From contig OX597814.1 of the NCBI GenBank assembly GCA_951406725.2, positions 53,134,001 to 53,198,000 on the forward strand: DNA of 64,000 nucleotides, given 5' to 3'. The DNA is from Octopus vulgaris (taxonomy: Eukaryota). Under the pieces are notes generated by a model. The model worked only from the letters and a program-made list of their open reading frames with translations, did not search any database and was not told where the DNA came from. Each line of letters starts with the position of its first letter. The first letter of the stretch is position 1. The translations under genes and the position numbers were made by a program. Of this stretch, positions 1 to 50,150 are shown piece by piece.

Positions 1-559
1 TGTTTCCATATTACTCTTACAAAACAACTCATATCCACTAAAGCCTTTTACAGTACAATAATAATATTCTGTCAAAAATAGAGACAGGAAACAGTAGGCT
101 TTATATTGTTATTACTTGATTAATTGCATACATCAATTCAGAATTATTTTCTTTCCTTACAATGCCGTGTTACTTAGACCGTGCGCTCCTCTCAATTCAT
201 GCTCGAGGCAACAGGTAGGTTTCTGATGGAAAGCTTGATACTCGCATTTGTGTGCACGCTTACTTTTAGTCTGAATGGTAGAAAATATATCACGATATGA
301 TCTTGTTTCTGAACTGACTTTTTCTTTGTTGTCTTTGGAAAGACAACAGTAACAGCAATGGAAATGCTAGCTAACATCTTCAGTTACACACACATACACA
401 CAGATGTATGTATGTATATGTGCGTGTGTGCGTACGTGTGTATGTGCATGTGTGTGTTTTGTGTGTGTGTATAGATAACAAACATACCTTTATAAAATGT
501 ATGAATGTATACACACACATACACATATATATATATGTATGTATAAATATATATGTATG

Positions 560-598
<39 letters not shown>

Positions 599-927
599 GG
601 CAACATGATATCAAGAAGTGATGCACTACGACATCTTGATATCCTGTTGCTTTTTTTGATTTTATTCACCTTAGTTCGAACTGTGCTGATAATACTTGAC
701 TGACTTGGTGCTTCAACACTTAAGTACCTAATTCAGCTGAATCTCAATTATATATATATATATATATAGCCACACACACACACACACACACACATGAATA
801 TTTAAGCGTAGGTGTGGCTGTTTGGTAAGAAGTTTACTTCTCAATCACATGGTCCCAGGTTCAATCTCTGCCCGACCAAATCCTCGTTACAGGTAGACGG
901 AATCTGAAAGAAGCCAAGAAGCTTGTC

Positions 928-1042
<115 letters not shown>

Positions 1043-1649
1043 ATATACATTAATATGTATGCGTATGTGTACATGCATACAAATATATTCGTTTATATTC
1101 AATATAAGCAAATACATATGTACACATGTATGTGTGTATACTTATGTATATATAACGACACACGCACGCACATACATATACATATGTGTATGTGTGTGCG
1201 TGTGCGTGCGCGTATATGTGAGGGCGGCGAGCTGGCAGAATCATGTACACAGTGCATTTCATTCGTCTTCATATTTTGGATTCAAATTCCGCCGACTTCG
1301 CCATTCATTCCTTCGGGGTCGATGAAATGAGTATCAGCGAGGCATGAACATCCCTCCCCTTGAATTTCAGGCCTTGTACATAAATAAATACATACACATG
1401 TATGTATTTATTGGGTTGGAAAGGAAATCTTGTCTCACTTGTGACATGATCACTTCGAGGGCACTTTCTCAATTCTGACAGTAAAATAAGCATTAATTTT
1501 TTTACATTCTAATGCCGTTTCCTTCTTTGCAAATTATTTTAAACCATAGTAGTTAATTTTGTATCATTTTTACTCTTTTAAAATGAGTTTAGATCAGACC
1601 GATTCCACACCCTGCATGCTGTATGAATTCAAAAGGAAGTTTTCAGCAA

Positions 1650-10122: not shown

Positions 10123-10195
10123 TCCTCAGTCGAGTTCCAGATTATCTTTGTAATTTCGGCTGGTTATACTCGAGATTGCTCCAATCTGGCCAGCC
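10123..10195 (-). ncRNA. Candidate non-circularly permuted, pseudoknotted hammerhead ribozyme (copy 1), inside a TA-flanked dispersed repeat at ~10010-10270
   Basis: Minus strand: GGCTGG-CCAGATT-gga-GCAA-UC-TCGAGT-ataa-CCAGCC-GAAA-TTAC-aaagat-AATCTGG-a-ACTCGA-CUGAGGA. All HHR core motifs are present with four helices, and the architecture is the same as at 32697-32773. Confidence 0.6.
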
Positions 10196-10985: not shown

Positions 10986-11017
<32 letters not shown>

Positions 11018-11019
<2 letters not shown>

Positions 11020-13044
11020 GATTAGTAATATTTTTGGTAGAAATGACTAATTGTCCCTCTTAGCGTTTGGCATGTATGTATAGTGCCTCTGGCATGTATG
11101 TATAATGCCCTCTATATATAAATTAATATGTTCAATAAGAAATAATTATTTTCGAAATTTTTTCTGTTATGAGGTTTTTACGCTATCTACCTGACAATTT
11201 CTTGGTAAGTTTTCCTTATTAAGTAGTTGTCCTTAATTGCTAAATTTTTATTCCGAAAAAACTTTTCCTCTCCCGAAATGCAATTCGTAAAAGTTTGCCA
11301 TTTAACAGGATGTAATATATGTAAACTCACCCATGTGCTTCGTTGATGTTGAACAGTTAGCTGATCGACTTAAGCGGGGCAGGGTCGTTGTTTATTTATG
11401 ATGCATTCTGGCCTGCTGATGAGTACGTAAGTATGAAATCACTGTGATACAGGTCTATATTTTTTAAATGTCTTACTTTGAAAAATTGCATTCGGTGGGA
11501 TTAGTAATATTTTTGGTAGAAATGACTAATTGTCCCTCTTAGCGTTTGGCATGTATGTATAGTGCCTCTGGCATGTATGTATAATGCCCTCTATATATAA
11601 ATTAATATGTTCAATAAGAAATAATTATTTTCGAAATTTTTTTCTCTTATGAGGTTTTTACGCTATCTACCTGACAATTTCTTGGTAAGTTTTCCTTATT
11701 AAGTAGTTGTCCTTAATTGCTAAATTTTTATTCCGAAAAAACTTTTCCTCTCCCGAAATGCAATTCGTAAAAGTTTGCCATTTAACAGGATGTAATATAT
11801 GTAAACTCACCCATGTGCTTCGTTGATGTTGAACAGTTAGCTGATCGACTTAAGCGGGGCAGGGTCGTTGTTTATTTATGATGCATTCTGGCCTGCTGAT
11901 GAGTACGTAAGTATGAAATCACTGTGATACAGGTCTATATTTTTTAAATGTCTTACTTTGAAAAATTGCATTCGGTGGGATTAGTAATATTTTTGGTAGA
12001 AATGACTAATTGTCCCTCTTAGCGTTTGGCATGTATGTATAGTGCCTCTGGCATGTATGTATAATGCCCTCTATATATAAATTAATATGTTCAATAAGAA
12101 ATAATTATTTTCGAAATTTTTTTCTCTTATGAGGTTTTTACGCTATCTACCTGACAATTTCTTGGTAAGTTTTCCTTATTAAGTAGTTGTCCTTAATTGC
12201 TAAATTTTTATTCCGAAAAAACTTTTCCTCTCCCGAAATGCAATTCGTAAAAGTTTGCCATTTAACAGGATGTAATATATGTAAACTCACCCATGTGCTT
12301 CGTTGATGTTGAACAGTTAGCTGATCGACTTAAGCGGGGCAGGGTCGTTGTTTATTTATGATGCATTCTGGCCTGCTGATGAGTACGTAAGTATGAAATC
12401 ACTGTGATACAGGTCTATATTTTTTAAATGTCTTACTTTGAAAAATTGCATTCGGTGGGATTAGTAATATTTTTGGTAGAAATGACTAATTGTCCCTCTT
12501 AGCGTTTGGCATGTATGTATAGTGCCTCTGGCATGTATGTATAATGCCCTCTATATATAAATTAATATGTTCAATAAGAAATAATTATTTTCGAAATTTT
12601 TTTCTCTTATGAGGTTTTTACGCTATCTACCTGACAATTTCTTGGTAAGTTTTCCTTATTAAGTAGTTGTCCTTAATTGCTAAATTTTTATTCCGAAAAA
12701 ACTTTTCCTCTCCCGAAATGCAATTCGTAAAAGTTTGCCATTTAACAGGATGTAATATATGTAAACTCACCCATGTGCTTCGTTGATGTTGAACAGTTAG
12801 CTGATCGACTTAAGCGGGGCAGGGTCGTTGTTTATTTATGATGCATTCTGGCCTGCTGATGAGTACGTAAGTATGAAATCACTGTGATACAGGTCTATAT
12901 TTTTTAAATGTCTTACTTTGAAAAATTGCATTCGGTGGGATTAGTAATATTTTTGGTAGAAATGACTAATTGTCCCTCTTAGCGTTTGGCATGTATGTAT
13001 AGTGCCTCTGGCATGTATGTATAATGCCCTCTATATATAAATTA
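11018..13044 (+). repeat. Tandem array of ~4.2 near-identical 479/480-bp units, each with a hammerhead ribozyme (retrozyme-like)
   Basis: The unit start GGGATTAGTAATATTTTTGG occurs at 11018, 11497, 11977, 12457 and 12937. Both ends abut (TA)n. Confidence 0.95.
11410..11455 (+). ncRNA. Type I hammerhead ribozyme (identical copies at 11890-11935, 12370-12415, 12850-12895)
   Basis: GGCCTG-CUGAUGA-GTAC(gtaa)GTAT-GAAA-TCAC(t)GTGA-UA-CAGGTC: complete core, stems I to III, AUA cleavage triplet. Confidence 0.85.
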
Positions 13045-13061
13045 TATATATATATATATAT

Positions 13062-22948: not shown

Positions 22949-23735
22949 TGAGGGTGCGCGCGTGTGTGTGTGTGTGTGTGTGTGCGTGGGCGTGAGTGTG
23001 TGACAGGAAAGTTTTTTACGACGAATATAAGTAGCAGAAAGATAAGACAGTAAGGTGTGATTTGAGGGAGATTTGGCTGCTATTTCTACCATGTCTAGCT
23101 GCCATGTAGGGGTCTCCCTCATAGGCTCATACATACATATATACATAGATAAGACAGTAAGGTGTGATTTGGGGGAAATTTGGCTGCTATTTCTACCAGG
23201 TCTAGCTGCCATGTAGGGGTCTCCTCATAGGCTCATACATACATATATACATAGATAAGACAGTAAGGTGTGATTTGGGGGAAATTTGGCTGCTATTTCT
23301 ACCAGGTCTAGCTGCCATGTAGGGGTCTCCCTCATAGGCTCATACATACATATATACATAGATAAGACAGTAAGGTGTGATTTGGGGGAAATTTGGCTGC
23401 TATTTCTACCAGGTCTAGCTGCCATGTAGGGGTCTCCCTCATAGGCTCATACATACATATATACATAGATAAGACAGTAAGGTGTGATTTGGGGGAAATT
23501 TGGCTGCTATTTCTACCAGGTCTAGCTGCCATGTAGGGGTCTCCCTCATAGGCTCATACATACATATATACATAGATAAGACAGTAAGGTGTGATTTGGG
23601 GGAAATTTGGCTGCTATTTCTACCAGGTCTAGCTACCATGTAGAGGTGCCCCTCATTGGCTCATATATATATACATACATAAAACAGTAAGGTGTGATTT
23701 GAGGGAGATTTGGCTGCTGTTTCTACCAGGTCTGT
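22534..23735 (+). mobile_element. Probable Helitron-like element carrying a minisatellite
   Basis: It starts A|TCTCTTATTATAAAAG, like the Helitron 5' end at 24505. I did not identify a 3' CTAG end. Confidence 0.4.
23040..23733. repeat. 107-bp minisatellite, ~6.5 copies
   Basis: The unit GATAAGACAGTAAGGTGTGATTTGGGGGAAATTTGGCTGC... repeats, and the ORF track shows peptides repeating every 107 bp. Confidence 0.95.
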
Positions 23736-27788: not shown

Positions 27789-30446
27789 CGGTTTAACAAA
27801 GTAACCAATGGTTTCATATGCAGTATTAGAGGAAAATAGTCATTCATGTATCATACTCAATATAAATATGTCGTGTTTGGCCAAAATTTACAGCAGCATT
27901 CGTCCAGGATAATATCGCCTATGCTCGTACTGTGTTTAAAACCACAATATGTATATATGGGAGCGAGATGGAACTTGCTCTAGCTGCCATGAGGGAGGTT
28001 TGTACTGAAAGTAATGCAAAACTGGGCATAACTTTTTTATTAACTGACATCGTTCGAAAGAAGATCAAATTGAAATACGCGCTCGTACACATACACAGAA
28101 AATTGTTATAGTACGGACAAATCATGTAGCCAAACATTTTTTGGCCTATTATTTTCTTGCACATTATATAAGCTTTAGGCTTTAAAGGATCTCAATTAAT
28201 TCTTCCAAGAAACCTTGCGAAATTACTAAGACAGGCGAAATAAGTGTGCATGAAGTTGTGCCGAATTTATAATTAAGAAAGATGTGCTCTTTGAAGTAAA
28301 TAATAAGTACAAAAAAACAAACAAAACAAACGAAATGTGTGTGTGTGTGTGTGTGTGTTTCCCTGTGTGCACGTATATGTGTGCATGCGTGTGCGTGTGT
28401 GTTTCCCTGTGTGAATGTGTATGTGTGTATATGTGTGAGCGTATTTGTGTGCTATGGAGAACTGGAGAAAAAAGTGAGAAGCCTTGTTCAGGTGAATGTG
28501 AGACATTGTGTCTTGTTCAGAGAATAATCAATATCATATCTGGGTAGAGTAAGGCGGAGTATGGGTTGTAGTTATCATGAATCGAGTCTTCAAGCTAATC
28601 TCAATTTTCCGTTGAAGTAAATTTTCACTGCGAAAGTTTTTCAGTGAACGTATCAATTCCACATTATTTCTCTTTGTCTTCCTTTCTTTTTTTAAATATA
28701 GAATCTATTACAAGTTACACGAAACGATATTATGCAGCTGCACAAAACAGCTCTCATAAAATAGGTGAATATGGCCGTTTATGTAACTTAGTCTCGCTTC
28801 TTATAATCCTTAAATTTTGATTCTTGTTAGTGTGTGGTGTATTTTTGCACAAGCTCGCTTCATATTAAGCATTCGGTTGTCATTTATCATCATCTATGAA
28901 TAACAAAAAGACTGTTCTTTAAGAGTTTGTGCTTTAATATTCATTATTTAAAACTGGCGACACATGCACGCTTAACAGTAGTTTTTGTCTAAGATTAAAT
29001 ATTAAGTACAGTATCGAATATCTTCTTCAACATGACTACTGAATGAAAATAAAAACAATGTTTCTTTTCATTCAAGTTTTGTAGCGGTTTAGTAAGATTA
29101 CAATCAAGCTGTATTAATAAATTTTAATATTTCTGGCGTTCATAATATTCACAGGCGTCATGAGAATTTATAAATTTTCGAGAGAACGTGAAGTAGTTTA
29201 TTTTTCAAAGCATGTAAGGCTATAAATAATAGAATGTAAATATTAGGTTGAAAACCTCTTTTGGACAGAAAAAACGTCGGAGGCTGCGATGGGGAGATAA
29301 ACTCACATCTCCTCGGGTGGATATGACAGATGTTCTACTATTGGACCAAAGTAAACCTTCGAATTTCCCTATCAATTTTAGAAACTTTATTTTTAACTTT
29401 TTCTTAAGATTATCTGTACAAATTTTCCATAGACATAGCTAGCAATGATTTGTTACGTCGTTTCGTATCCGAATACGTCTAATGTAAACAAAGCAATTGC
29501 AGATGGAAAAATAAGTAATGTGTGTATATACATATTTCAGGAGTTCTTGCTCCTTCTTCAGCATTACATCCAATCTATTAACCACCTACGAACTCATTGC
29601 TTAAATAGCTATTAAGTATAGCGACGTAACATTATTGGATATCCCAATTTTACATATTAAACAAATTCCTAGCAGTTGGTACGTAAATATTAATTACTTG
29701 TAGAGATACTGTATTTCTCTATGCAATCATAATATACTTCTAAGTATATTAAACGCTTTAAAAACCTGTAGAGATAGCTTTTAAAAAAGGTGATTTAACA
29801 ACACTGCTAACACGGTAGGACACAGTATTAACTTATAGAGCGTTAAATATACTAATACTAAGCGTTTAATATACTAATAACCGTAATATACTAGTATATT
29901 ATGATTTCATAACTAAAACCAGTATCCTTACCAACTTAAATGTTGTTGACGTCATAAGAATTCATAAGAATAATTTCACGTTCGATATTTACATAATACA
30001 TTGAATGTATTGGGTTGACAAATCCAGAGTTCTGGTTCGGGTCCCACGAGTAACCTTCGAGTTTTTTTTTATCCAAAAAAGTTTTACAACTTAATTTTTA
30101 CATGCTATTATCTATATTCGAAACCCACCGTTCCTTTATATACATTTTCATCCGCTGTGATTTATCTTGCTTTTCTAGTTTGCTGGTTGCCTTTCTCATT
30201 AGTATTTGTTAAAAGTGAGTGTTGCTAATACAGACAATTTGCAAGAAATCGAATTCAAAACCGTGTGACATTTAATAAAAAAAATTATATATACTAGTTT
30301 GTGTAATATACATATTAACTTATTTCGTTTCTTTAAATATTGAATGACACTTCGAATGACATTTTTTGTAACGTAAGATGTGTGGATAAAAATACGTGTA
30401 TGTGTATGTGTATGCGCGCGCGTATATGCGTGTGTGCACATATATA

Positions 30447-31609: not shown

Positions 31610-31655
31610 AACAAAACGTTTCGGCTGATATACCCTCCAACCTTCTTCAAGTGCC
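31610..31655 (-). ncRNA. Degenerate minimal hammerhead
   Basis: Minus strand: GGCAC-UUGAAGA-aGGTTG(gagggtatat)CAGCC-GAAA-CG-UU-TTGTT. It has C3>U without compensation and a stem I mismatch. Confidence 0.5.
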
Positions 31656-32351: not shown

Positions 32352-32408
<57 letters not shown>

Positions 32409-32412
<4 letters not shown>

Positions 32413-33295
32413 AACTTACTTGGAGGAAACAAAACGACGCGAGGGCGCTCAGTCATACAATAGTGTAATAAATAAAATATATGCATACATGCATACATAC
32501 ATACATATATGTACGTACCTACATCTACATGTATATATACATGCATATATAAATATATATACGTGAGTACAGGACACCACAAATAGACGTAGAACTCAAC
32601 GAGAAAAGAAAACGTAAAAACAAACATGGAAACGGACATTTTTTTTAACAACGAAAAAACAGAGTACAAGACAAACAACACAAGGAAAATTCCCCTTCAT
32701 CAGCTGTCCCTAGTACGACTCCATGCGTGTTTCGAAGGTGAGGACAGAACACGACTCATCGAACTAGCCCTTCCTGAGAAAGAATTAAATAAAATTCCTT
32801 CGCAGAGGGGTAAAAACAAGGAAAAAAATTGTGACAAAAACAGGACGTAAAAACGATACAAATAAAATTACAAAATAAAGTACAAAATAAAATACAAAAT
32901 AAAAATACAATTACAAAAAAATACAGTACAAGAAATAAAAACAAACAAGAAGACAAACAGGCCTAGACGAGGAAAGATTCTTAAGAGAGCAGGAAGAAAG
33001 CGTGTTCACTGTTAGGAGGCCGCAAGCGAAAGGAAGTGGTCGCCCGGCTGTGAGAGAGATGAGGAGGAGTGAGAGAGAGATAGAGATAGAGGAAGACAAG
33101 CGGCTGTGAGAGAGATGAGGAGGAGTGAGAGAGAGATAGATAGAGGAAGACAAGGAAGGAAGGGAAGGTCAAGCAAAGGGTTATAGAGTTTCGCGTCATA
33201 ATTATATATAAAAACTTACTTGGAGGAAACGAAACGACACGAGGGCGCTCAGTCATACAATAGCGTAATAAATAAAATATATGCATACATACATA
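32409..33295 (-). mobile_element. Dispersed repeat bounded by ~85-bp direct repeats (32409-32490, 33205-33295), TA-flanked, carrying the permuted HHR
   Basis: AAACTTACTTGGAGGAAAC...GGGCGCTCAGTCATACAATAG occurs at both ends, and there is an internal ~54-bp tandem duplication at ~33045-33152. Confidence 0.7.
32697..32773 (-). ncRNA. Candidate non-circularly permuted, pseudoknotted hammerhead ribozyme (copy 2)
   Basis: Minus strand: GAAGG-g-CTAGTTCGAT-gagt-CGTG-UU-CTGTCC-tca-CCTTC-GAAA-CACG-catgga-GTCGTACTAG-GGACAG-CUGAUGA. Confidence 0.65.
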
Positions 33296-33436
33296 CATAT
33301 ATATATATATATACATAATGGAGAAATTATACAAAATGTATAAATATATTATCAGTAAAGCACCAGCAGAGTTTCGATTACTTGTTGTTATCCGTAGATT
33401 TATTGCAGGAACTTCGTAGTGAGGGTTTGGATAACA

Positions 33437-41778: not shown

Positions 41779-41822
41779 TCTGGAACGCCAGTGTTTCGAC
41801 ATGTTGTGCCTCGTCAGTCAGA
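41779..41822 (-). ncRNA. Type I hammerhead ribozyme within a diverged ~280-bp tandem duplication (~41632-42030)
   Basis: Minus strand: TCTGA-CUGACGA-GGCA(caaca)TGTC-GAAA-CACTGGCG-UU-CCAGA, with one mismatch each in stems I and III. Confidence 0.65.
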
Positions 41823-43262: not shown

Positions 43263-43381
43263 ATCTTGCTACATGGAAGTGTTCGTGTCGGTTATTTTGT
43301 ATTGCGTTTGTGCGTTGGATTTGTTGATTATTGTTGTTGAGAACTGTTGCGTCGTGTTGAATTGTTGGAATTTTGTTGGGT

Positions 43382-44763
43382 ATGCAAGCCCAAACTTATG
43401 CGGGAGCAGCAGGCAAAAGCCTGGCTGCAAAAGAACTACAGTTGGAAGAAATAATTATCGAGAAGGAAAATTTGAGGAAATACTACGACAGCTTCAAGAA
43501 GGAAGGTGACTGTCTGAGGGTTACACCACCTGAAGACGAAGTGAAAGAAGCGGAGAAAAAAATCATAACATACAGAACGTGGAATGTGGTCTCACAGAGA
43601 ATAGAAGTAGCAGAGGTGGAAGAGATTGAGAAATGTCTACAGGAAATTAAAGGAAGAACTACCTTCTAGAATAGAGGTAGAAAATACGCTACGGTAGACG
43701 TTCGTTTTGAAAATGAAGACGAAGCTAAGAGAAACGCCACGACAGTATTGAAATCGGAAAAATGGGTTTTACTTTCTAGTTATTGTGGAAAAAGAGCAGT
43801 GAGAATACGGATAAGCAAAATCCCACCGGAACTTGATACCGAAAGAATAGTAGCTGCAATAATCTACAACTGTAAAGAGAGCGTGGACATTCTTAAGGTG
43901 GAAAAGTCGAAAGAAATAAACTGGTGGGGTTATGCGGTGCAGGCTTCGGTCCACATAACCATGCCAGATTTGTATAACATCCCGGAGGAGTTGGTGTTCC
44001 CCGACGAGACACGACTGAAAGTCGTGGTGGAGGGGAGACCTCCAGTATATTATAAATGTAGGAGCAGAGGGCACATGAAGGATGTGTGTCCTCAAAGAGA
44101 AATACAAGAGAAGACGATAACACTGGAGGAAGGAATGGAGACTTTGACAGAAGAGTTAGAAAAGGAGAATGTGGAATTGCAAGCGGAAGAGGAAATCGTG
44201 ATAACAGATAATGTGGAAAGTGGCGACGAGTTGGTGAAGGAGAAAGAAAAGGAAAGAACAGAAGAAAAAGAGGATAGAAAGCAAACATGGGTGGAATCAC
44301 CACCCAAAGACCAAAAAAAGAAAAAAGCTAAAAAGAAGTCTGCCGACGAGATAGAGGATCGAACGCACGAAGGGAGAGATACAGCAACGAAATTGAGTGA
44401 AGTTTCAACGTGGGAGGAAACGAATAAATGGTCAACTAAAGTGGAAGAATGTCTGAAAACATGCAAGGAAGGAGGAAGACCAAAAGGAAAAAATGTCAAA
44501 GCCGTAATGTTGTACAAAAAGGATAAAGAAATCGAGAAAAATTAGCGATAATGAAAAATCTAACGAGAGTGAAATTGAATCCGAAGATATACGATAACCA
44601 AATAAAGGCTGCAATTGTGGATAAAGAGACGGTAAATAAATTAATAAATTTGTTTTCAAATATAGCTGTGGGCATAGCGCACTACGTTCGATATGACAGT
44701 TTGCCCGGCGTTATAGAACAGGATGAATTACTCGCTTGCATTGCTGACGAACGCCACAGATAG
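43382..44763 (+). pseudogene. ~460-codon ORF1/gag-like nucleic-acid-binding protein (RRM-like segments, zinc knuckle, acidic/lysine-rich region), slightly disrupted
   Basis: ORFs 43373-43669 and 43748-44545 share a frame (one TAG between them), and 44551-44763 joins through a 1-nt frameshift in an A run. VVEGRPPVYYKCRSRGHMKDVCP is a CX2CX4HX4C knuckle with the first C replaced by Y, as in L1/Tx1-type ORF1. Confidence 0.75.
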
Positions 44764-44973: not shown

Positions 44974-45020
44974 CCTGGGCTGATGACGGGTTAAGACCCA
45001 GAAACATGCATGTGCTCAGG
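44974..45020 (+). ncRNA. Hammerhead fold in the 3' pseudo-LTR (GUG triplet, probably non-cleaving)
   Basis: CCTGGG-CUGAUGA-cGGGT(taag)ACCCa-GAAA-CATGCATG-UG-CTCAGG. Confidence 0.7.
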
Positions 45021-49091: not shown

Positions 49092-50150
49092 GTTGTTTCA
49101 CATGAAATGTCGCTTTTTTAATTACTTGTTATTTCAATCATTTAAAAACTTAATTATGGTAATGGTTTTATTGACATCAGAACTGTTCAAAGATGGTTCC
49201 AAAACTCTCGTTCAGGTGATGATAGCCTTGAAAATAAACTAGCGCGTAGGCCAACATCATTTATTCGGCATGATGGATTAAATGCTTTGGTTGAACAAAA
49301 TCCAAGAACAAAGGTTCGAAAACTTTCATCAGAACTCCAAACATCTCGCACAACTGCTTTTGGACACCTGTAAAAATTTGGAAAAGTCAAGAAAACAGAT
49401 AGGTTTGTTCTACATCAATTGAACGAGATTTAAAAAAGCAGACGCCTCGAAATGTGCTCCTTGTTGCTTTCTTGACTGGAAAAAGACCATTTTTGCATCA
49501 AATTATTACTTGTGATGAGAAATGGATACTCTTTGACAACAGCAGGAGAACAGCACAGTGATTAGATGCAGGAGTGTCACCTCAGCACAACCCAAACCCA
49601 CCATTGCACCCTAAAATGTTAGTGGTCACTGTATGGTGGTCTGCGAAGGGAGTTATTCATTATTCATTTTTGCAACAAGGAAAAACGGTAACAGCAACAT
49701 CATATTGCCAGGAAATTGATTGTATGCATGAGAATTTGAAAAAGAAGCAACCCAGACTAGTGAATAGAGATGGTCCAATTTTGCTTCACGACAATGCACG
49801 TCCTCACACTCCTCAAGCTACGGTACAGAAGTTGCAAAGCCTGAATTATGAGATTTTGCAACATCCTTCCTATTCCCCTGATATCTCTCCTACTGATCAT
49901 TTATTTAAGCATTTTGAGCTTTTCATAAGCAATAAAACATTCTTAAATAGAGAAGAGGTAATTGAAGCACTCGGACGGTTTACCACAGCGGAAGATGAAT
50001 TACTTTTAAAAATGGAATATATGACACAGAGAAACGTTGGGTAAACGTCATAAATGAACATGGATCATACTTTGATTAAATAAATCAGTTCTGTAACATT
50101 TCTGAAACATTTTTACTTTTCAAATACGACATTTCATGTGAAACAACCCA
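49089..50150 (+). mobile_element. Mariner (DD34D-type) transposon, internally deleted, with a pseudogenised transposase
   Basis: TIRs GGTTGTTTCACATGAAATGTCG and CGACATTTCATGTGAAACAACC. Motifs ITCDEKW, LLHDNARPH and HPSYSPDISPTD are present, with stops. Confidence 0.92.

Follow-up and report, generated by a model that had tools for sequence, protein, structure and literature searches.

Eckert et al. (2023; PMC10085705) treated the hammerhead ribozyme as three blocks taken to be unbreakable, which yields six orders, and the available portion of that report assumes a break between A9 and stem II to be impossible. Types SGC and CSG were validated there and neither was found in the genomes of known organisms: SGC (HRIMA-1 and variants) came from metatranscriptomes only and CSG from two metagenome sequences. 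Non-circular hammerheads had been on record only from environmental sequences of unassigned origin, apart from a single weak candidate in bacteria. The Naiad clade of Penelope-like elements (PLEs) was reported as being without canonical hammerheads, with core or half-core words flagged (Craig et al. 2021, PMC8557442). Naiad_Ovul was flagged ‘HHR_half_core’ by those authors, and the part of their paper available to us describes no permuted fold for Naiads.

We analyzed a 64,000-nt stretch of the Octopus vulgaris genome (contig OX597814.1, positions 53,134,001 to 53,198,000; hereafter the window). An earlier note on this DNA had proposed a permuted, pseudoknotted hammerhead on the minus strand at 32697..32786; every segment was found at its place within 32697-32773, and the predicted cut after GUU, between 32748 and 32747, agreed with the segment coordinates. 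The motif extends over 32692-32810 (-), ~120 nt including helices P0 and P0b, and folds into six helices, not five, in the strand order P0-P0b-D-X-III'-UH-I-D'-GAAA-III-X'-I'-CUGANGA-P0' (Table 1). Its sequence and predicted fold make it likely that this is a self-cleaving hammerhead, non-circularly permuted and acting as a monomer, near the 3' end of Penelope-like retroelements; that the fold would cleave in some form is very likely. The motif is genuine, widespread and probably active, an apparently new way of wiring an established ribozyme class that goes with Penelope-like elements.

Table 1 Coordinates of the motif segments, the host repeat and the related copy in the window.
Feature	Position	Strand	Remarks
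P0, 5' strand, partner of the five bases after A9	32806..32810	-	Pair probability 0.67-0.92
P0b hairpin, 13 bp, abuts P0 and D with zero unpaired bases	32774..32805	-	Two-sided change at 3 pairs
D, stem II 5' strand, first base G10.1	32769..32773	-	
X, 5' strand of the helix between the distal ends of stems I and II	32758..32767	-	
Stem III, 16.x strand (III')	32750..32753	-	
U16.1-U17 (UU), predicted scissile bond between 32748 and 32747	32747..32749	-	By analogy with the hammerhead core
Stem I, 1.x strand	32742..32747	-	
D', stem II 3' strand, 3-nt link from stem I	32734..32738	-	
GAAA (G12-A15.1) 32733-32730, then stem III 15.x strand 32729-32726	32726..32733	-	
X', interaction-helix 3' strand	32710..32719	-	
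Stem I 2.x strand (I') 32709-32704, then core C3-A9 CUGAUGA 32703-32697	32697..32709	-	
P0', 3' strand, first base directly after A9	32692..32696	-	
Family-A non-coding PLE-type repeat, one 800-bp unit plus short terminal duplication	~32403..33349	-	Flanks (TA)n-rich
Optional ~49-nt 3' tail	32412..32460, repeated ~33212-33260	-	
Damaged family-B copy, same architecture, unrelated sequence	10123..10195	-	

The hammerhead core bases (C3-A9, G12-A15.1 and U16.1-H17) were all intact in the window copy, and GAAA and the core were intact in 24 of the 29 distinct matches of its repeat family (family A). Stems I, II and III around the core have 6, 5 and 4 bp, with A15.1-U16.1 in addition to the last. 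We take hammerhead numbering to require G10.1-C11.1 as the first D/D' pair. This pair was retained in family A, in the families B and C described below and in their relatives, and we therefore assign D/D' to stem II, since its first pair is G-C in every family as predicted; D/D' comprised 5-6 Watson-Crick pairs in all of them. Stem II does not begin within 1-2 bases of the end of CUGANGA; P0 comes directly after A9 instead. The outer helix that had been suggested to close the gap between A9 and stem II turned out to be drawn in the wrong register: its 5' strand is the 3' arm of P0b, and the bases after A9 actually pair with 32810-32806 (P0). Within X, the window copy has one U.U mismatch and one G-U pair. 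It also carries a substitution at 32777, absent from other aligned copies, that opens one P0b pair and makes it possible for UCAG to pair with the core CUGA, as in one minimum-energy fold of this copy. With P0b weakened and an alternative core pairing permitted, the window copy may be a poorer ribozyme than its family. No Rfam hammerhead family matched at E ≤ 10 within 32600-32900, as expected for a permuted form, which standard descriptors and Rfam miss; among the best 150 of 265 rows of the whole-window Rfam scan, most were microsatellite-driven miRNA matches.

The motif is like type SGC in its order of site, GAAA and CUGANGA, in the ~3-nt link between stems I and II, and in a helix that binds the other ends of those stems, leaving three mutually crossing helices. 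It differs in that SGC places stem II and X after CUGANGA, whereas the octopus motif has both 5' of the core, links X to III' and bridges A9 to 10.1 by P0/P0b. Type CSG has the same circular strand order and a short X-to-III' link, but its chain is open between III and X' and continuous from A9 to stem II; the octopus motif is reversed on both points (SGC and CSG as given in the available text of PMC10085705). SGC, CSG and the octopus form correspond to one circle of strands opened at three different points. The III-to-X' link is that of SGC and the X-to-III' link that of CSG, and the octopus form has both and opens at A9/10.1. Each of these unusual links thus occurs separately in ribozymes that cleave, the X-to-III' link measuring 0-1 nt in CSG-1/2, for which cleavage was shown (PMC10085705, same portion), and this supports a cleaving fold. 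The UUAAU link between stems I and II of the published CSG was also seen in Acropora Naiads, in the consensus sequences available, and in a family-B subfamily.

Canonical minimal type I hammerheads of PLE pseudo-LTRs and of non-LTR retrozymes are alike in residing in terminal repeats, either of PLEs or of short, non-autonomous tandem elements that PLEs gave rise to (available portions of PMC4209133 and bioRxiv 10.64898/2026.07.22.740005). Those hammerheads are circular permutations with a minimal stem III, whereas the octopus motif is larger and non-circular with an interrupted core block, and its family-A unit (about 800 bp) is longer than the non-LTR retrozyme units described in the same portions. 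The earlier note had called the motif a candidate new topological class pending a literature check. Its novelty does not extend to the block order, the I-II link or the interaction helix, all already present in SGC (PMC10085705, as available); the opening at A9/10.1 with its two-helix, four-way P0/P0b bridge appears to be the new part. Across literature drawn mainly from outside subscription journals, we found no A9/10.1 opening with tested cleavage, and the available text of papers including PMC3088659, PMC10162972 and PMC13725137 contained no helix insertion at A9/10.1. The exact wiring and non-circular hammerheads in animal elements were likewise undescribed in this mainly non-subscription literature, including the available text of the 2026 retrozyme preprint (10.64898/2026.07.22.740005).

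In the monomer model that we favor, X and III would form one arm whose apical loop carries the cut site, I, D' and GAAA, and two helices of half a turn each (I and II) would dock this loop on single-stranded parts of the multiloop that P0 closes. P0 would stack on P0b and A9 would be held beside G10.1 as the exchanging strands of a perfect four-way junction, so that a helical crossover would replace the missing A9-10.1 bond. Alternatively, the helices and cut could be the same with stems I and II formed between two copies, either two molecules or partial-tandem repeats, the apical loop of one X/III arm docking on the base of another and cleavage occurring only in tandem or concentrated RNA. 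A monomer must bend its X/III arm back on its own base, the elements do occur as partial tandems ~770-800 bp apart, and minimal PLE hammerheads have been proposed to act as dimers (PMC4209133, in the portion available). Nested folding gave P0, P0b, X and III as a stable multiloop from which D and I were absent, as two copies would predict, but the program disallows pseudoknots and cannot display D and I alongside X and III. SGC and CSG ribozymes with equally short links were cleaved during transcription of single-copy constructs, with no dimer tests reported in the available text (PMC10085705), and we regard the two-copy arrangement as unlikely.

The same strand order recurred with other helices. 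The motif at 10123-10195, which the earlier note had matched to this one, does have the same order and different helices, in a damaged copy, for which comparison with 37 other matches shows a C.A mismatch within stem III and the loss of 11 nt immediately behind the core. It belongs to family B (1,908 candidates). A third unrelated family, family C (1,960 candidates), was first met in the flank of a locus; it follows the end of a Naiad-type ORF in one locus (L115) and its sequence agrees with the 3' ends of both Naiad_Obim and Naiad_Ovul (supplement of PMC8557442), which identifies family C as the Octopus Naiad 3' UTR. The fold is therefore found with different helix sequences in at least three unrelated families of the O. 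vulgaris genome, one of them the Naiad 3' UTR, and the covariation across unrelated repeats that had been claimed holds for families A, B and C. Four further loci (L211, L212, L218 and L219) represent a more distant, apparently abundant family whose six helices are arranged in the same fold and have sequences of their own.

That chance was an unlikely explanation, as also claimed earlier, was borne out by shuffled controls. The real DNA searched came to 664 kb, made up of the window and 60 stretches of 10 kb at even spacing. In it a strict descriptor for the new strand order had 3 matches, against 0 in every one of 20 dinucleotide shuffles, and a loose descriptor had 5 matches versus 0-1 in shuffles, one of the 5 (L123) looking like chance. 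A short loose pattern gave only a modest excess (2950 matches versus 1878 in the control), and 2 of 20 examples passed the descriptor. All three gaps of the four-way junction were zero in 41 of the 59 distinct descriptor matches. Because a minimal zero-gap junction (P0 ≥ 3, P0b ≥ 5) arises in 13-47% of shuffles, only the observed helix lengths are informative; shuffled flanks reached the observed P0+P0b lengths in 0-8 of 2000 trials for five families, and a diverged sixth case (L208) failed to pass. Across 20 family-A copies, 90% of cells were paired (91% in P0), and two-sided change was seen at 9 of 45 pairs, mostly in P0b and X (4 of the 10 pairs of X), a count matched by 0 of 500 shuffles, with slid partners giving 1-4. 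Stems I, II and III hardly varied within family A, partly because most rows had been selected on D', III and the core, and covariation of these stems consequently rests on comparison between families; they do covary between families and between family-B subfamilies.

Among the published Naiad consensi, 11 of 54 contained the four-way form, in five phyla, as counted by eye in the available File S5 of PMC8557442 from matches to all four CUGANGA words, a count that may miss words split across lines. These were the Naiads of Beroe, one Clytia element, three Acropora elements, Naiad-2_Movir, Naiad_Plae, Naiad_EuTe (its identity assigned from the order in File S5), two Octopus elements and Euprymna. 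Stem I has only 2 bp in Beroe and D has one mismatch in Euprymna. By the same inspection, G10.1-C11.1 was present in 10 of the 11 and junction gaps were 0-1 nt in 9 of the 11, and six nematode Naiad consensi were clean type CSG. Spider, horseshoe crab, ostracod and king crab Naiads had CUGANGA in their 3' regions in other arrangements, some apparently site-GAAA-core with inserted hairpins, and no CUGANGA core was seen by eye in the bivalve and hemichordate consensi of that file. The permuted form is probably the answer to why Naiad elements seemed to be without hammerheads.

Family A yielded 2,615 first-look candidates, of which 40 were scored at 95-98% identity, and an exact pattern across D', GAAA, III and the core had 1,625 matches versus 0 for the reversed control. 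The unit is ~785-800 bp and without an ORF. Copies form partial head-to-tail tandems with variable 5' truncation, are inserted in (TA)n and end 3' at either of two fixed points ~49 nt apart: among 30 loci, 15 ended with the tail, 11 without it, 2 continued in tandem and 2 were other. Partial tandems, 5' truncation, an optional tail and (TA)n targets are marks of Penelope-like elements (Craig et al. 2021, available portion of PMC8557442), and family A is like the Naiad clade in all four and different in having no ORF; the Naiad ORF, upstream of the 3' region, has GIY-YIG at its N terminus and RT (reverse transcriptase) at its C terminus. In a Poseidon element, the optional tail has been linked to two reverse-transcription start sites. 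To judge by its tandems, truncation, 3' ends and (TA)n targets, family A is probably a non-autonomous Penelope-like element, and the earlier proposal that the carriers were animal retroelement-like repeats can be made specific: they are Penelope-like elements and non-autonomous derivatives, with one Naiad family.

No autonomous element with reverse transcriptase (RT) and GIY-YIG that shares the end sequence of family A was found among the loci searched, and none of 30 GIY-YIG loci had a descriptor match. One of them (L067) encodes RT followed by a C-terminal GIY-YIG; together with L072 and others it represents a young family of PLEs in which numerous 781-aa RT + GIY-YIG frames are intact and the ~1-kb 3' region, without CUGANGA, contains repeated TGATGACGTC words. 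A family-A relative was fused to an inverted, truncated PLE fragment with a C-terminal GIY-YIG at L077 (about 121-1130, minus strand), and perhaps also at L064. The one clear case, L077, is a possible hint that a PLE type with C-terminal GIY-YIG, not Naiad, mobilizes family A. Two copies 5.6 kb apart at another locus (L181) proved to be independent insertions.

Start positions of insertions relative to the predicted cut were compared using the matches listed first whose (TA)n-element junction lies no more than 30 nt upstream of D', with offsets classified by hand. Among the matches listed, 25 of 28 family-B loci start at 0..+11 from the predicted cut, six of them exactly at 0 and none at -9..-1, and 24 of 30 family-A loci start at 0..+9; the pile-up has p about 1e-7 against a uniform model. 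TA microhomology favors some junction positions. A comparison of 0..+4 with -5..-1, which sidesteps the A/T-rich linker and controls microhomology only in part, gave 12 versus 0 loci for family B and 17 versus 1 pooled, again among the matches listed, whereas family A alone was not significant (5 versus 1, p = 0.11). Upstream, family B had ~4 minus-strand rows per nt and downstream ~12, compared with ~69 at 0..+11, a value extrapolated from the rows listed; the control anchors span different subfamilies. For family A the downstream control does not allow a comparison, as a related family made up most of it.

A cut RNA copied to its 5' end should give insertions that begin at or just after the cut, and the pile-up just 3' of the predicted bond is indirect evidence, from genomic junctions, of cleavage in vivo. 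Four contig sets presumed to derive from RNA overlap part of the stretch; they are uninformative on ends, strand and level and were left out of the evidence. Under the monomer model, the core would cut after GUU in a tandem or read-through transcript, and a PLE reverse transcriptase provided in trans would take the 3' product as its template, so that many insertions would begin at the cut or a few bases after it. The pile-up bears on whether PLE ribozymes shape the template in vivo. For a Poseidon PLE, mutating the hammerhead left insertion in vitro normal, the cut was not the end point of any read and the ribozyme needed protein, a result that counts against a general role of PLE hammerhead cleavage in insertion.

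The junctions also bear on a second reading, in which the fold is hammerhead-derived and does not cut, acting as a protein-binding or RT-stalling signal with the pile-up due to stalling or microhomology. The A9-10.1 break could inactivate the core, and structured RNA can stall reverse transcriptase. A stall would be expected at the 3' edge, but the pile-up begins at the predicted bond, inside the structure, and is as one-sided as the pooled counts above indicate; AT microhomology just upstream of the family-B cut was unused in 28 loci among the matches listed. Conservation of the core across unrelated families and five phyla also argues for a cutting fold, and we judge a non-cutting role very unlikely. 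Most improbable is an ordinary type SGC hammerhead with stem II formed from bases after CUGANGA and D/D' incidental. Allowing one inserted base, a G-rich run in family A, and in that family only, could form 4 bp with D', two of them G-U. In families B and C, by contrast, the sequence behind the core is not complementary to D', and D/D' is Watson-Crick paired everywhere. The strict SGC descriptor, which calls for an uninterrupted block C (I'-CUGANGA-II), had 0 matches in the window or 600 kb and 3 in a set of 90 loci (two were family-A copies whose D' is mutated), and strict SGC was rejected.

Returning to the self-cleaving monomer, we lean towards a broader reading in which Naiad-type elements across animals carry a family of non-circular hammerheads. 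The commonest form here would be a seventh wiring, with a core-block bond replaced by a perfect four-way junction, and its cleavage in vivo would determine where the transposition template begins on the 5' side; the rare CSG and SGC forms would open that same circle elsewhere and may in part have come from elements of this kind. If true, hammerhead wirings extend beyond the six that Eckert et al. (2023) considered possible, and non-circular permutations are placed in thousands of copies in animal genomes.

Other features were seen in the window. A tandem array with a 480-bp unit (11017-13049; 4.2 copies, 99% alike) resembles a non-LTR retrozyme, every unit having a canonical type I hammerhead-like motif, at 11416-11438 (+) and again at 11896, 12376 and 12856. 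Further canonical-order hammerhead-like words, some with degenerate cores, lie at 31619-31650 (-), 44980-45004 (+), 41794-41817 (-) and 29535-29561 (-), and probably derive from other PLE terminal repeats. The frame at 43361-44545 (+) resembles what we take to be a LINE ORF1-type protein, and that at 49562-50044 (+) is presumably a mariner-type transposase fragment. A 107-bp tandem array of 6.5 copies occupies 23040-23733.
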